NCBI GenBank assembly: GCA_964016885.1
Contig: OZ024740.1
Span: forward strand, 322,710,001-322,774,000
Reading direction: 5' to 3'
DNA: 64,000 bases
Source of the DNA: Eledone cirrhosa
Taxonomy: Eukaryota
Part shown: positions 17,984 to 31,963 of the stretch, in pieces
How the letters are laid out: each line of letters begins with the position of its first letter
How positions within the stretch are numbered: the first letter of the stretch is position 1
The notes under the pieces: model-generated
What the model saw: only the letters and a program-made list of their open reading frames with translations
Databases searched by the model: none
What the model was told of the DNA's origin: nothing
Position numbers and translations under genes: made by a program

Positions 17984-19140
17984 CACCACCACCTCCACCA
18001 CCTCCACCTCCACCGCCTCTACCTCCACCACCACCACCTCCACCACCTCCACCTCCACCTCCACCACCACCACCTCCACCACCTCCACCACCTCCACCTC
18101 CACCGCTATTACTACCATCACCACCTCCACCACCACCACCACCACCACTACCACCATCACCACCACCACCTCCACCACTATTACTACCACTATCACCACC
18201 ACCACCACTATTACTACCACCATCACCACCACCACCACTATTACTACCACCATCACCACCACCACCACCATCTCCACCACTATTACTACCACCATCACCA
18301 CCACCACCTCCACCACTATTACTACCACCACCACCACCACCTCCACCACTATTACCACCACCACCACCACCTCCACCACTATTACTACCACCACCACCAC
18401 CACCATCACCACCACCACCACCACCACCACCACCACCACCAGCACCAGCACCACCAGCACCACCACCACCACCACCAGCACCAGCACCACAAGCACCACC
18501 ACCACCTCCACCACTATTACTACCACCACCACCTCTACCACTATTACTACCACCACCACCACCACCTCCACCACTATTACTACCACCACCACCACCACCT
18601 CCACCACTATTACTACCACCACCACCTCCACCACTATTACTACCACCATCAGCACCACCACCACCTCCACCACTATTACTACCACCATCAGCACCACCAC
18701 CACCACCACCAGCACCACCACCACCACCACCTCCACCACTATTACTACCACCACCACCACCACCTCCACCACTACCACCACCATCACCACCACCACCACC
18801 ACCACCACCTCCACCTCCACCACTTTTACTACCACCACCACCACCACCACCACCACCACCTCCACCACTATTACTACCACCACCACCACCACCACCACCA
18901 CCACCTCCACCACTATTACCACCAGCACCACCACCACCACCAACACCACCTCCACCACTATTACCACCAGCACCACCACCACCTCCACCACTATTACTAC
19001 CAGCACCACCACCAACACCACCTCCACCACTATTACCACCAGCACCACCAGCACCTCCACCACTATTACCACCAGCACCACCACCACCACCAACAACAAC
19101 ATCAACAATAACAACAACAGCAGCAACAGCGACAACACCC
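17984..19140. repeat. (ACC)n-derived cryptic triplet repeat with ACTATTACT variants
   Basis: Read directly. Open in several frames because of its composition. Confidence 0.9.
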
Positions 19141-19402: not shown

Positions 19403-19456
<54 letters not shown>

Positions 19457-19596
19457 TAGAAGGGGTATTTAATTTGTTGGAAATCCGACAAATATAAATA
19501 TAAATGTGTATAACTGATTTAGAGCACTCAACAGTAGCCTGGAGTAAATATTCAATGATATTAAATAAATGGAAACTATATTTATAAAACCATATT

Positions 19597-19659
19597 TATT
19601 TTATTATATATATTTCAAGTGTACCAAAAGACTTTGGTACGCTTTCTTCAGATAAAATA
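19597..19659 (-). ncRNA. Type I hammerhead ribozyme at the 3' end of PLE1
   Basis: Reverse complement is UAUUUUAU-CUGAAGA-AAGcGUACCAAA..UUUGGUACaCUU-GAAA-UAUAUA-UA-AUAAAAUA: 8-bp stem I, long stem II, palindromic minimal stem III. Confidence 0.85.
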
Positions 19660-20371
19660 CAAAGTTCGTTTTATAAATAGGAAAATCATACCTTATCAGT
19701 TGGATATTCTCTGGATTGTGGAAATGTATTAGGGATTTTTCAAACTTATGGGTGAATATGCAAATGAATATGTAAATAATTGAAAAACAACCGTTTATTT
19801 AAACGACTATGGAGAGAGAGAAGAGAGAAGAGAAGAAGGACAAAATAGTGAGAGAGAGAAAGAAGGAAAAAAAGCGAAGATGAATAAAATAACTCATATA
19901 ACGTTAATTTGAGGGAAATATATTCGAACAATTATCTATGTATATATGTAAATATATATATCTTAATAATATGTGTATTTATATTAAAAGGATATTTTAC
20001 GATTATTAGTTGTTTAAATTTTGTTTATAATATATTTTTCATTCGTTTATAAGTAGATAAATAAATAAATAAATAAATAAATAGATGGGTATATCATGTT
20101 ATAGATAGTTGTTCTAATGAGTTATGAGGGATATTGGTTTTATGTAAATAAATATGTATTTAAAATTGAGAATGTTTTAAAATTAAATTAAATTAAATTC
20201 AATTAACTGAGTTAAGTAGGAATATTTATATTTATATGATTGAAAAGGGAAGATAAGGAAAAAACTCCGGTTTTATTTATTTATTTGTTAGTGTGAGACT
20301 ATTTAGTCAAAATAAGTATGGATGTTTAAGATACATTTAGCCAGAATCAGTTAGTGGTTATTAATCTATTG

Positions 20372-20520
20372 GAAAAATAATATTGAAAAAATATTGAGAA
20401 AATATTGAAAAAGTATTGAAAAAATATTGAAAAAATATATTGAAAAAAATATTGAAAATAAATATTGAAAAAATATTGAAAAAATATTGAAAAAATATTG
20501 AAAAAATATTGAAAAAATAA
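20372..20520. repeat. 11-bp repeat (GAAAAAATATT)n inside the PLE1 3'UTR
   Basis: Read directly. Confidence 0.85.
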
Positions 20521-21073
20521 AAAAAAATGTTAAGAAATTTTGAGGAAAATTTTGAAAAAATGTTTGAGAAAATAAAAAAAAAAAAGTTTTTTTAAGATAT
20601 AAGTAATTTTTAGAGAAATAAAAAAATTATTAATATTAAAATTAAAATTAAAATTTAAAAAATATAAAAAAAAAATTAGAATTATATACGTATATATTAT
20701 ATGAACATTTTAAAGAAAATGTTTAAGAAGTGGAAGTACAGCAAATGTTAGAAATATGATTTAGAGATATCAATATATTAAAACCAAGTAGATGAGATTG
20801 TTATGGAGATTAATAGGAATATTATAAGTATAAATGGAAAAAAATGAAACGTAATTTCATTTCTCACTCTTAGTACGGCTGTTACTTAAATATAAGTATG
20901 TATACGTACAGTAGTATGTATATATATACATACATGCACACATATATATATGTACGTATGGATTTACCGAGCATTTATTATAATGCTCAGTTTGTTTGTA
21001 AACAAACATCCCGAATTAAGCCGTACAGTGTTTAGCAACCATCGTTGCCCTTTTGTTCAACACTGACAAAGGA

Positions 21074-21116
21074 ACGATGTATTAGTTTCAAGCTTATTAG
21101 CTATCGTCAGCACCGT
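21074..21116 (-). ncRNA. Minimal hammerhead ribozyme (inverted copy)
   Basis: ACGGUG-CUGACGA-UAGCUAAUAAGCUU-GAAACUAAUA-CAUCGU. Confidence 0.7.
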
Positions 21117-21378
21117 ATACCTTTAATATGCATAAGGAAAGTATATACATACTACTGTACGTCTGTATACATATATGTATGTACGTATACATACTTATAT
21201 TTAAGTAACAGCCGTACTAAGAGTGAGAAATGAAATTTCGTTTCATTTTATTCCATTTATCGTTTTCGGTGCGCCCGGCCGATTAACTCACTCGATATGC
21301 AAATTAGGCTACTCAGCCGTTAATATGCATAAGGAAAGTATATACTTTCAGACGTTCAATCATCTGGTAGGAACGTAT

Positions 21379-21421
21379 ACGGTGCTGACGATAGCTAATA
21401 AGCTTGAAACTAGTACGCCGT
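21379..21421 (+). ncRNA. Minimal hammerhead ribozyme
   Basis: ACGGUG-CUGACGA-UAGCUAAUAAGCUU-GAAACUAGUA-CGCCGU: 6-bp stem I and palindromic ACUAGU stem III. Confidence 0.8.
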
Positions 21422-22770
21422 TCCTTTGTCAGTGTTGAACAAAAGGGCAACGATGGTTGCTAAACACTGTACGGTTTAATTCGGGATGTTTGTTTACAAA
21501 CAAACTGAGCATTATAATAAATGCTCGGTAAATCCATACATACATATATATATGTGTGCATGTATGTATATATATACATACTACTGTACGTCTGTATACA
21601 TATATGTATGTACGTATACATACTTATATTATAAGTATAATTATAAGTTATATATAGTTCCGAATGTTGAATTCTGGCGATGTCTACAAGAATTAAATAA
21701 ATTCGTTCTTAGATTAATAGAGTTTTTACAGTTACGTATACAAAAAATTTCCTCAATACACAATTTTCAGAATCTAGATAAAGCTGTGTTCGGTACGCGG
21801 GTGCTTTGTGAAACTGTTTCCCAAGCTAATGAATAGTCTATATTCTTGCATTTTAAGTTCCATATCAGGTTTGAAAGAGAAGTTGAAGATATTTTATCAA
21901 ATCTTCGGAAAGAAAAATTGTGGTTATTCCAGCGAATTTTAAATTCTGTAGAAGTTGCACCGACATAGTTAAATATATTATCACTAGTTTTGACTGTGCA
22001 TTCATAGACCACGTTTTTATCTAAACACTTATTTTGTAGAGGACAGTTTGATTTAATTCTACAGTTACATTTTGTGGAGTTGTTGTTGCTAGGAACGTAC
22101 TATTGCTAGAATTATTACTGCTATTTTGGTTATTTTGGTTAGGGTTTAAATTTAAGTTTCTATTATTAATTCTATTTATATGTTGTGCTTTGTTCATAGT
22201 AGTAGAGTAGGATAGTTTTATAGTATGTCTGTTAAAGATTGAGTGGTATCTGTGGGCTTTAGGAAAACATTTGTCTAGTGCTTTAAAGAATAGCTTTGCT
22301 AAAGGTGTTTTAACGCTTAATGAGAATGGGGGTGAGTACCAAATAATATTTCTAGTTCTAGTTCTTCTGTTAGTTTTAGAGTTTAAGTTAAATTTTTTAT
22401 TATTATTACAATTAATAGTAGGGTGATTTCCCTTATTATTGTTGTCGATGTATTTAATCTTATTTATATACCCTGCTCTATTTAAAGCTTCATTATAATA
22501 TTCAGCCTTATCATAAAAAATGTTTTTATTAGCGGAGATGCGTGAAATCCGTTGTTGGACACAATTGACAATAGTGTTCTTGTGTTCTTGATAGATCTAG
22601 GATGATTAGAGTTAAAACTTACATAGTTTAGATTCTCATTAATTTTATGGAAATGATAGTAGAGCCTTGTGCTAAGGTTTAATGTTACGTCTAAAAAGTT
22701 AACGATTTTATAGTTATTCTCTATTTCTAACTTAAGGTTGTAGTTATTGAAGAGTTGTATTATCAAGTTT

Positions 22771-23078
22771 TATGAAAGGTGGGTGAAAGTGGCGAGAATG
22801 GCCCGAGTGAATGGGCCTTCTCTTTATATCAGCCTGTAGGTTGAGGAAAAGGAGGAGGAGAGGAAAGGAGTACAAGCTCTTCGTACTCCTGGAGATGAGG
22901 GTTGCACATTTTTTTCGGGGGTCTGTGTTACCCATATAAACTGTCTCCCTCTATTGGGGAAAATCGACTAACTTTTAAATTCCATCTGTGATAACATTTT
23001 ACACGTTTTTATTGTATGTAAACTTCCCCCTTTGTATTTGTCCCCTTCTTTTGTGCCCCTGTGGCTAATAAAGAAATA
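22771..23078 (+). mobile_element. 3' end of a LINE (L1/Tx1-like)
   Basis: Pyrimidine-rich 3'UTR ending AATAAAGAAA before (TATC)n; a similar end is seen at about 62400-62750. Confidence 0.4.
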
Positions 23079-27388: not shown

Positions 27389-27960
27389 TATCACTAACTT
27401 ATTTCAGATGTTACTTGTTCGATCCACTTAAACTAACCAAAGAATGGAACTCACCACTACCACTTAACCAACATCCATAATGACTATGCTATTGTTCTGT
27501 AAGACAATAGTATGGAAATAGGAGCTTTAATCATAACATTCTATGGTTTTAAGTTCAATGTTATTTCTCAAATAAGCCTACCATATGACTATTATATATC
27601 TTATGCTAGTCCGACAGAAAATATCTGTGCCAAGCATATATATTTTCAGTTAATCTTAAGCTAAGGATTAATATTAATATATTAGCATATTTATGCTCGA
27701 TATCTACTTTTAAACAGCACATTTACTGTTATACGCATTCAAAATAAAGAAACACACATATACACATATATACATATATACATACATGCATATATATAGC
27801 ATACATATAACATACATATAACAGCTTTGCCGGATCCTCATTACATAGAGCTAAAAAACACCTAGTAAATAAGTATATATACTCTCACTAATATTATTAA
27901 TACATACATACATATATACTTACAAACAGCAGGGCTGAACACAACATCAACAACAACAAC

Positions 27961-30900
27961 ATTAAGGAAGTACCAGAGAAAAACAACGAGAAAGGTAAAC
28001 AAAATTTATTCAGTTGTAGTTACAGAAGAAACCGAAATTATAAATCGCATTTCTCTTGGAGTTGCGAACTTAATGATTTATTTAATTGTTATAAAATGGC
28101 AAAAAATAATTCCTCCATTGGCTATATGAACAGAATGAAGCTTCACTGGGACGAAATACACCCAGAGCTAAATCACTTCACAGCGCAACAATTACGCCAA
28201 CAAGCGACGTTTGTTGAACGTAAAAATAAGATAAATATTATTAATTGTAAGTCCCCCACAATAAACATGGGATCAACAACACGTGCTACAGGTTGCCATG
28301 CAACTACACTTCCTAGCAGCCAGGTCGAACAGTGCCTTGAAACAACTATGCCTGTAAGAAACTTGACACCACGTGTACCCTCTAAGTCTACCTCGAATGC
28401 TGGGGAAAACACTATCGATAATAATAATAATCGAAGAAATAATAATAATAATCGAAGAAATTTAACACCACGTGTATAAACAATTGAAACATTTCTCTTG
28501 CTGAACGTATTAAAACAACAATATTTAATAAAAAACCAACTAATGAAATATTACGTGTTATTGACGAAATAGGGGATGAATATTTACGACGGATAAAAAC
28601 CCCAACATTTTGGCAAATCAACGCCTGTTTATATGCCTTAGCAATGCCAGTGAAGCATTATCTTGGTGATAGCAGAGATATTAACAAGGACAAAACACCA
28701 CCAAAAATACCATTATATATAACTAAAATAGAAAAAAAGATTGCTGACCTACGAAAAACAATAGGATATGTGACAATGCTCCTTACATGCAAACAAACAC
28801 AAAAAACCTCACTCCTCACCAACAAAGAGTGAAAAATAAAATAGAGATGTTTGGTAACTGTAGAACCAGAACTCTTCAATATAAGCTGATCACCCTCAAA
28901 TAAGAATTGAGAGCTGTTAGCGAATAACGCCGATACCTGAAGAAGGTAGATGAAAGAAAAGGGCTTAATAAAAGATTCAGACGAAACCAAACATCAGTGT
29001 CACTGAACAAGCAGCTGGAAAGAAAGGTGTTTGGAGATGTGCTGAACAACTCCTAATCAACAAAACTGCGATGTCGGAGGTGCGACAACTTAGGAGGAAT
29101 ATGGCTACAGTCTGGCTGGACTACAGGAAAGCTTTCAATTCTGTTCCCTACTCTTGGATGATAGAGGCCCTCCAGCTTGCTAAAGTCTCAGACATTATTA
29201 TCAGAGCCATAGAGAAGCTGTCTTCTTCTTGGGCTACTATCCTAAAGTTAAAGACAGAGAAGGAGGACTCTATTTTCACTGATAAAATAAAATATCGCAG
29301 TGGTATGTTTCAGGGAGACAGTCTCTCTGTGATATTATTCATCCTGTCATTAAACCCCTTGTCCTTTCTGCTCAAGAAATGTGAAGGATACATCATTGGC
29401 TCACAGGAGGACAGAAAACGAACCTAACCCATAATTTCTTTGTGGATGATCTGAAACTCTATGCCATGAAAATGGATGGGATGAAGAAAAATCTTGACTT
29501 GGTTACAACGTTCTCAAAGGATATAGGAATGGAGTTTGGCCAAGATAAATGCTCATGTATGACAGTAAAGCGGAGAAAAACAACAACCCAATCTAGCAAC
29601 ATTGTCATCAATGGCCTAACTGTTTCACCGATATCTGATGCGGACTGCTACAGATACCTGGGGATAGATGAGAACATATCCTATAATGGTATCTGTAATA
29701 AGGAACGCGTAACCAGGGAATACTGCACCCGATTAAGAAAGATTTAGTCATCGGAACTCTCTGCGCAAAACAAAACAGTGGCTCACAATGTGTTTGCTGT
29801 GCCTGTCCTAACACTAACGTTTAGAATACTCAATTGGACGATAGACGAAATCCGAGCAGTTGATGTTAGAACTCGAAAAATACTAAACAACACAGGAAAC
29901 TTCCACATCAACAGTGACATAGACCGCCTTTACTTGAAACGTAAGCAGGGAGGCAGAGGCCTAACATCAGTCCAGACAGCATTTGAATGTCGCATCATAT
30001 CCCTCCGACAACATCTACGAACCTCGAAGCGTAGGAGCCCGTCTCTCGAGCAAATCTATCTGCATGAAACAGATAAGATCATGAGAGTTGGGAAGGAACT
30101 CCTCGAGAGATATTCCCTGTATGATAATCAAAAACTCACACCCAGGGAAGTCGCTCAGCAGTATCGCAGTGACTCCATGGATGAAAAACTGCATGCCTAT
30201 TAGCAAAAAATCATGCATGGATATGTTGCCAGGAAGCTCCAGAGTGAGAGTAATATAGATAAGGAAAGTAGTCTATCTTGGACCAACAACCGCTATATTG
30301 GCTCCCACTTTGAAGGAGACGCTTTTGCTATCCAAGAACAGGAAATTAACACGAAATACCCGATTCACAAAAGAGATAGGGTTGCAGGCAAAACACCTAG
30401 ATGTGATAACAAGTGCAGACTCTGCAGAATTAACATCGAAGATGTCACCCATGTCATCAGCAGCTGTCCAAAGATGTCATCGCGGTACTATCTACCTATG
30501 AGGCATGATGTAGTGGCCAAAACACTGTACAATGTAATCCATAGAAAAGATAGCCCCGATAATAAACACATTAAAAGCTACAGCAATGTGGAAGACATCC
30601 ATGTACATAATATGAAAGAGTACTGGTGGAATGTTCCAGTAAAAACCCCAATAAAATGCAGGCATAACAGACCAGATATTATGATATGGGACAGGGAGAA
30701 GAAAGCATGCACAATAGTGTAAATTAGTTGCCCAGCAGATGCCAATATAATATCAAAATTTAGCGAAAAGTAGAATATTTATGCAGAACTGATGAGAAAT
30801 CTGCAGATACTCCACCCTGATTACACCTTCAGATTTATGCCTGTGATTATTGAGGCACTGGGGTATGTTAGTAATTGCCTCAATACAAATCTTGAGAAGC

Positions 30901-31216
30901 TAGGCTTCACAGGAAAAGAAAGAACACAATAGTTAGGAAATTACATGTACAATCCATTAATGGAACAGTAAAAATATGTAAAACATTCCAAAAATTTTGC
31001 ATCTAATAACTGCATATACACATGTACAGATACAAAGCATATACACATGCACACATACCACTCAAAACATACACATCCACACATACAATAACATCCATAT
31101 CTACACATGCATACAGTGATGTTGTGTAAATTCCAATGAAAGAGTCTTGCGTCTATGTTAGAAACCGACTATCTCTCTATTGGTAAAACTTTGTGAAATT
31201 ATAAAACCAGAAGAAC
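27961..31216 (+). mobile_element. RLE-type non-LTR retrotransposon (R4/Dong-like), copy 2, pseudogenised
   Basis: WLDYRKAFNSVP, GMFQGDSLS, (FV)DDLKLY, YRYLG, DRLYLKRKQGGRGL, CRLC..THVISSC knuckle, RHD, NRPDI; several stops; (CATA)n tail. Confidence 0.93.
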
Positions 31217-31620: not shown

Positions 31621-31963
31621 ATACACATAGGCATACAGACATTCATAGTTACGTCCAGATAAAGTGATCCAGCTGAAACTTCGAAGTCACTACCACTTTT
31701 CTACTCATAAAATAGAATTTACATTCTATCTGCAGGTATTGAGTGCTCATTCAGTTAATGTTTGAATTTTTTATGTGGTATGGTATTTATACACCTATTC
31801 TAGTATATATAATGGTACTGTTAATTAATCTTAACTGACCAAGCTCGCATTATATGCAAATGAGCATCTCCAGTAGATGTTTTATACGCAAAATGTTCTC
31901 AGTATCGAGTGAGCAAACCTTACAAATGATGGATAAAAACCTGAAACTGGCGTTCTCACATGG

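Follow-up and report, generated by a model that had tools for sequence, protein, structure and literature searches.

A non-LTR retrozyme in Eledone cirrhosa with two head-to-head arms ending at paired fixed sites: a probable Penelope-type insertion resolved by its target-site duplication

The closest described systems are the non-LTR retrozymes of metazoans and the Penelope-like elements. As far as the accessible portions of the two main sources go (PMC7229834; 10.64898/2026.07.22.740005), metazoan non-LTR retrozymes are non-coding tandem units of low GC content with one type I hammerhead ribozyme per unit, found as monomers to multimers, with target duplications longer than 4 bp, and co-occurring with Penelope-like elements. 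Unit lengths are given there as 150-450 bp (PMC7229834) and 51-972 bp (10.64898/2026.07.22.740005). Their RNA circles have been shown, and mobilisation by Penelope was argued from the co-occurrence and from similarity to pseudo-LTRs. Neither two fixed end sites nor paired head-to-head arms are described in the same portions of these papers. Penelope elements are marked by a tail on one end only, an inverted 5'-truncated arm and targeting of (TA)n, according to the sections of PMC8557442 and PMC3846280 used here. In vitro, the tail was identified as the interval that separates two start sites of reverse transcription, with both strands cut and extended, a primer without homology to the start site, and start-site use equal between the strands (PMC11167929, in part).

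The locus presented here lies in a stretch of 64,000 nucleotides of the Eledone cirrhosa genome, called the window, to which all positions refer unless a locus is named. It holds an insert of two head-to-head arms of a 428-nt hammerhead unit without ORF, joined at 21123. By its sequence the unit has the features of the non-LTR retrozymes: GC content of 0.37, tandem arrangement, a type I hammerhead in each unit, no coding capacity, target duplication and Penelope-like elements in the same genome. It differs from the retrozymes of both papers, as far as these were accessible, in that RNA circles are shown for them and are putative for the unit, and in having no matched parent among the four Penelope families compared. 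With Pen2a_Av (PMC3846280) and the elements reviewed in PMC8557442 the insert shares the inverted 5'-truncated arm, the one-end tail, the target duplication and the AT-rich target, although the tail is 30-40 nt in the Penelope elements of these partly seen sources and 59 nt here, and those elements carry an ORF which the unit lacks. The work on PAc (PMC11167929, in part) places two internal start sites beyond the hammerhead on its downstream side, as in our unit, and reports nicking just downstream of the element's own ORF-pseudo-LTR junction, which is the position of the insert in its host. PAc starts at non-homologous sites, while the unit shows 4-5 nt of microhomology between primer and template. 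Chlamys MRC1 (PMC8557442, PMC9977147) is likewise a non-autonomous Penelope passenger with head-to-tail multicopy insertions and microsatellite targets. In the parts of these two sources used here, the 3' end of the Chlamys elements generally resembles an autonomous family and most lack a canonical hammerhead, in contrast to the unit, which has a hammerhead and no matched parent. In a literature search covering few subscription papers, we found no published description of a cephalopod retrozyme, of this family or of paired retrozyme end sites.

The features of the locus are collected in Table 1. The preliminary description had reported a non-coding insert of about 790 bp inside the 3' UTR of a Penelope-like element (PLE), flanked by a 15-bp target-site duplication (TSD), and all of this was confirmed: the insert measures 792 bp, is free of ORFs and follows directly after the host stop codon, and 23 of 24 other genomic copies of the host element have an empty, contiguous site. 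The exact 15-mer is present once in 16 of these 24 copies. The host ORF (stop codon at 21643-21641) includes the C-terminus of the reverse transcriptase (RT), a CxCx5C linker reading CNCRIKSNC, and a GIY-YIG-type domain; a Pfam search of the host protein gave no matches. In translations of its relatives the motifs DKT, CxxC and CxH were read. The Hydra clade, in the available text of section 11 of PMC8557442, has a CxCx5C linker, a DKT motif, no CCHH, a hammerhead and a (TA)n target. The host and its relatives have the linker, DKT, CxxC, CxH, the lack of CCHH, the hammerhead and the (TA)n target in common with this clade, so the host fits a Hydra-clade Penelope-like element by motifs rather than by a tree. 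Its own hammerhead is at 19658-19598 and its own end sites are at about 19553 and 19456. From the sequences, the insert is unrelated to its host, the homology between the host pseudo-LTR and the unit being limited to two short motifs, TTTCCATTTAT and TACTTAT at an end site. A second copy of the host family carries the same retrozyme in its AT-rich UTR at a different site (L052:2625-3457).

Table 1. Positions of the insert, its parts and its host in the window. Unit position 1 corresponds to window position 21261.
Feature	Position	Strand	Remarks
Host 3' UTR/pseudo-LTR	19456..20833	-	own different hammerhead and own two end sites, then (TA)n
TSD, left copy	20819..20833	+	15 bp, ATATTATAAGTATAA; its final 4 nt (ATAA) agree with the unit at site B
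Whole insert	20834..21625		792 bp, between the two TSD copies
Left arm	20834..21123	-	unit 112-428; 5'-truncated; 24-nt internal deletion; 3' end at site B, has 59-nt tail
Left hammerhead, type I	21074..21116 (21116-21074)	-	predicted cut 21080/21079; helix III broken by private G>A
26-nt piece	21123..21148	+	unit 60-85; joined to position 311 via TATATAC (putative template switch)
Right arm	21142..21625	+	1.14 units: 311-428 then 1-369; crosses site B and ribozyme cut site; 3' end at site A
59-nt tail, internal copy between sites A and B	21202..21260	+	21260/21261 is site B
Predicted helix	21221..21293	+	GAGUGAG 21221-21227 with CUCACUC 21287-21293; closes domain around site B
Octamer ATGCAAAT	21297..21304	+	kept in 91/102 units; altered in a young subfamily
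Right hammerhead, type I	21379..21421	+	predicted cut 21415/21416; private stem-I variant CGCCGU
TSD, right copy	21626..21640	+	ATATTATAAGTATAA; first 5 nt ATATT match unit at site A; adjoins host stop codon
Host ORF, 3' part	21641..22780	-	broken, 5'-truncated, Hydra-clade Penelope-like; 5' limit approximate

The ends of the arms were followed in a main sample of 64 loci in position order (70 fetched, 6 overlaps dropped). Among 112 arm 3' ends, 44 fell at site A (unit position 369), 49 at site B (position 428) and 19 elsewhere, and a TA run followed 80 of the 93 ends at A or B. The two sites are 59 nt apart and lie 214 and 273 nt beyond the ribozyme cut. Head-to-head pairs numbered 37 in the 64 loci; both ends could be classed in 25, of which 24 combined one A end and one B end (binomial P = 7e-7). 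The same combination was found in all 16 classed pairs of a second set (20 pairs, including the present locus) and in 17 of 18 classed pairs of a third set (29 pairs). In total, 57 of 59 classifiable two-armed insertions have one arm at A and one at B, a count that excludes 27 of the 86 pairs with an end at neither site. Autonomous Penelope families of this genome showed pairing of the A+B type in seven of seven two-armed copies, read by eye. At the ribozyme cut, no 5' ends (0/113) and no 3' ends were found in the 64-locus sample. The position 21260/21261 had been taken for an apparent tail-to-head junction; since 3' ends cluster at fixed sites and none are at the ribozyme cut, predicted at 21415/21416, this position is site B and not the ligation joint of a circle. 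Elsewhere in the window, at 31655-31960 (+), there is a 5'-truncated element which starts in the 3' half of a hammerhead, contains GAGTGCTC and ATGCAAAT and ends in (TA)n; its sequence resembles that of a further Penelope end or retrozyme family. A two-armed array of near-identical copies of an unrelated 310-nt hammerhead unit was seen at L224:4300-6500.

Other elements of the preliminary description concerned smaller parts of the insert. A repeated 26-mer was indeed found at both 21123 and 21320. The monomer of about 430 nt also stands, as a unit of 428-429 nt which is prone to tandem arrangement, free of ORFs and separate from the host element. Template switching was retained in part: one switch is visible, linking the 26-mer to the arm via TATATAC, but for the inversion separate priming of two cDNAs is the better reading. 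The octamer and an AATAAA (at 21516) are both present, but a signal role for them did not hold up. ATGCATAT replaces the octamer in 8 of 102 units read, a young subfamily among them, and a role for the octamer is probably unsupported. AATAAA was rejected as a signal because the + strand of the window has 1.36 AATAAA per kb.

Both hammerheads have a helix I of 6 bp, a helix II of 4-5 bp and a helix III of 2 bp with a palindromic loop. They had been described as two minimal hammerheads in opposite orientation with different stem-I strands. The orientation and the strands were as described, CGCCGU on the right and CAUCGU on the left, each forming 6 of 6 pairs with ACGGUG, including one G.U; the word minimal does not apply, as the 2-bp helix III is retained. 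In the portion of PMC4209133 available, the minimal hammerhead of Penelope pseudo-LTRs has no helix III, a helix II of 7-8 bp and a short helix I. The unit ribozyme does not match this form but is the ordinary metazoan one with a short helix III, which, following the same part of that paper, would be expected to cut as a dimer. In 30 loci there were 54 matches to the unit ribozyme, comprising 41 intact, 7 broken and 6 partial copies. CGCCGU is private to the right ribozyme (1/41), as is the change to CUAA in the left helix III (1/41), where 38 of 41 have CUAG. Rfam gave no matches at gathering score in the 64-kb window, and none of its 51 weak matches there came from a hammerhead family.

The genome searched comprises 3.0 Gb. 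The exact 35-nt ribozyme core occurs 1,275 times in it and the reversed control not at all, so the motif is not due to chance; a looser pattern for the ribozymes of the clan gave 26,149 occurrences, again with none in the control. A 270-nt query returned 2,757 candidates, and the 40 that were scored were 96-100% identical. The subfamilies of the clan have units of about 422, 428, 442 and 466-480 nt. A distant relative, 63% identical over 333 nt, has a different ribozyme stem with the same tail layout and end (L091 from 2087 (+), L150). No ORFs were found in the six frames of the unit, and thus it lacks the ORF with RT and GIY-YIG by which an autonomous Penelope-like element is recognized.

The unit folds far more stably than its shuffled versions (z = -7.55). 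The predicted helix around site B, which spans 21260/21261, covaries between subfamilies by a single compensatory change, with A-U in 57 loci, G-C in 11 and A-C in 2; stem I has a likewise compensatory G.U/U.G swap between subfamilies (149 and 52 units), and both changes are probably single events in subfamily ancestry and so weaker than these counts suggest. A bulged hairpin seen by eye after the tail end sites of the Hydra elements has no clear counterpart in the unit. In the Hydra host family, two complementary pairs lie across the second end site, at the tail-to-ORF junction (L128, L129, L133): GAGTGCT with AGCACTT, and TCAGTTATAA with TTATAACTGA, in crossing order and pseudoknot-like as judged by eye. 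Rare variants of the unit's subfamily showed no excess of A>G over T>C of the kind left as scars of RNA editing (64/12461 vs 50/11155, P = 0.51). In contigs of four sequencing runs, whose RNA or DNA kind is unrecorded, the unit was far deeper than the host flank, but the summed contig depth is no measure of expression, the clan being far more numerous than the host family.

Arms longer than one unit made up 46 of 115, and 13 of 115 were longer than two units; at the present locus the arms have 1.14 and 0.7 units. The ribozyme cut site is crossed by 77 of 98 arms, a fraction inflated by the choice of loci for holding a ribozyme. Because the right arm here passes both the cut site and site B, a cut linear monomer cannot have been its template. 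Young copies have locus-specific haplotypes common to all units and both arms, which would fit a circle and also transcripts of homogeneous arrays. Within the best model, a circular template is slightly favoured. Long arrays were rejected as proof of rolling-circle copying for this subfamily, since those at L174 and L171-L231-L172 grew after insertion. The former (L174:1893-7294) is a 12.6-unit arm with a recent, near-perfect higher-order duplication of five units, and the latter (G000:C1, about 132,715,000-132,730,300) is an uninterrupted satellite-like array of ~15 kb with heterogeneous recombined units. At L233:1337-3273 two types of unit alternate (a,b,a,b) before a third one follows, pointing to either a dimeric template or a later duplication of a dimer.

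The two arms of the insert differ by 7 substitutions over about 293 nt, by the 24-nt deletion and by insertions of single bases. One minor variant, at a CpG, is common to both. Where they differ, the letters are private or rare, as in 114C (1/97), 153A (1/98) and 157G (2/96). Across loci, the arms agreed in subfamily in 23 of 23 pairs. At young loci the arms differed at 0/265, 0/164, 2/384 and 5/1775 sites, and those loci differed from each other by 2.2-7%. In the older subfamily, to which the present locus belongs, the divergence was 6.6% between neighbouring units of one arm, 6.6% between different loci and 5.5% between arms, which counts against the mechanism proposed below. Variants were nevertheless shared by the arms at 0.94% of sites vs 0.40% between loci, approximately 2.5 times the chance level and above all of 1,000 random draws. 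Either age or two templates had been proposed for the differences. The near-identity of arms at young loci, the shared variants and the private letters make age sufficient, and two templates are disfavoured by the subfamily agreement and by those same private or rare letters; as judged from these sequences, a single RNA population is the likely source of both arms.

If the unit were regularly attached to an ORF for RT, as in an ordinary pseudo-LTR, its free 5' flanks should reveal this. Among 57 such flanks, 10 had matches to Penelope proteins and only two were direct same-sense joints, each to the 3' part of a different Penelope family and at a truncated internal point. There was no regular joint, and no common upstream sequence was seen in the 57 flanks; the separation of the unit from an RT ORF is thus upheld in this sample. 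A BLAST comparison of the unit with four Penelope families at their ends gave no match; these were the host Hydra family and another of the Hydra type, one of the Neptune type and one with a 1240-aa protein. The genome does contain Hydra- and Neptune-type families in which many ORFs are intact, and a very young Neptune-type family (L176-L190, L229) has 106 scored copies of 98-100% protein identity with many intact frames of 775 aa. Single joints link the retrozyme to the host Hydra family (L164) and to a Neptune-type family (L143). At L165 and L292 it lies head to head with a second Hydra family across a TA run, and at L275 and L294 it adjoins another retrozyme-like family. These joints were rejected as a clue to the partner, for they are single cases and point different ways. 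The direct joints (L143:1339-2793; L164:2005-2720 with an upstream Hydra part; L292:5579-8900; L294:684-1750) may be template switches or deletions. The window further contains a broken LINE-like RT region with many stops at 27900-31000 (+) and a long (CAC)n-rich minisatellite at 17985-19110 with several spurious ORFs above 400 aa.

Mobilisation of the Penelope type, as had been suggested, is supported by the paired fixed 3' ends, the tail and the TA targets, all as in Penelope. We regard the insert as a copy of a non-LTR retrozyme placed by a Penelope-like enzyme in trans into the AT-rich start of the 3' UTR of another element, with a probability of roughly 80%. In most copies the cut is hidden by the TA run; it can be resolved here since the insertion is in non-repetitive sequence for which many empty sites exist. 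The end of the left duplicate, ATAA, can pair with the UUAU of site B. The right duplicate starts with ATATT, which is also what site A reads, and with one letter skipped the match extends to 11 of 12. We infer that each end of the duplication primed one arm from a 3' overhang of a 15-nt staggered cut. The same arrangement was read by eye at L003, with a duplication of 14 nt. The endonuclease would thus nick both strands 15 nt apart and leave 3' overhangs. The overhang ending in ATAA would pair with UUAU at site B and prime the left arm, and the one ending in AATAT would pair with AUAUU at site A and prime the right arm. Both reverse transcriptions would cross the ribozyme cut site, which would make the template a circle or an uncleaved multimer. 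The cDNA of the right arm would jump 226 nt via the TATATAC microhomology, the two cDNA ends would be joined head to head, and the arms would then diverge by about 2.4%. A more specific version, which we put forward tentatively and at somewhat less than even odds, has one Penelope protein dimer sitting on a single circular retrozyme RNA and using its two start sites simultaneously, one per 3' overhang of a 13-15-nt stagger.

Other explanations of the insert were weighed against copying in trans by a Penelope-like enzyme. The unit could be the truncated pseudo-LTR of an unsampled autonomous Penelope, with arrays formed later by unequal crossing-over. Penelope insertion usually leaves solo and inverted pseudo-LTR remnants (PMC8557442 and PMC4209133, in the parts seen), a pseudo-LTR origin of retrozymes has been proposed (Li et al., 10.64898/2026.07.22.740005, likewise in part), growth of arrays after insertion was seen at L174 and L171-L172, and about 150 loci were read among many thousand. 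Yet unit position 1 follows site B even in short two-armed insertions such as the present one of 1.14 units, 46 of 115 arms exceed one unit, and the ORF-less unit has neither a regular ORF joint nor a common upstream sequence in the 57 free 5' flanks, so that we consider a truncated pseudo-LTR improbable. That the second arm was formed by self-priming, by fold-back on an antisense template or through switching from one template to a different one has been given slightly more weight and is still unlikely. Fold-back on the first cDNA cannot give unit positions 1-111, present in the right arm and missing from the left, and nothing in a continuing synthesis would make it halt at the complementary fixed site, as seen in 57 of 59 cases. 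The short overlaps at head-to-head joints, mostly 0-4 nt and in a few cases up to 13, would suit self-priming, which was proposed for such structures by Arkhipova et al. 2013 (PMC3846280, seen in part). The arms here do differ, by 7 substitutions and the 24-nt deletion, as two templates would have it; the differing letters, however, are private or rare, and each end of the duplication agrees with its respective start site over 4-5 nt.

Least credit is given to a LINE-type enzyme acting by L1-like twin priming on a SINE-like passenger, which we hold to be very improbable. Twin priming of L1 typically yields 13-15-nt duplications and 5' inversions, and to this extent the insert would conform. 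Internal priming by L1 is not known to be fixed to sites, whereas both ends of the unit are fixed internal sites; the unit has no poly(A) or simple-repeat tail of its own, and the A+B rule is common to the Penelope families of this genome. LINEs have been named as possible retrozyme partners in the accessible part of PMC7229834, and LINE remnants are present in the window around 27900-31000.

Copying by a Penelope-like enzyme in trans bears on how animal retrozymes are copied and on why the Penelope tail is found at one end only. The paired ends can be counted in the genome and are evidence for the strictly paired use of Penelope-type start sites by a retrozyme. The locus yields the stagger of the cut and the primer ends, which are normally hidden by (TA)n targets, and it provides work in vitro with a defined target and a small RNA as substrate. 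If a single dimer does work on a single circle, this would explain together the one-end tail rule, the head-to-head inversions and the retrozyme multimers, and the helix at site B would be a cis signal letting an unrelated RNA circle hijack the enzyme.
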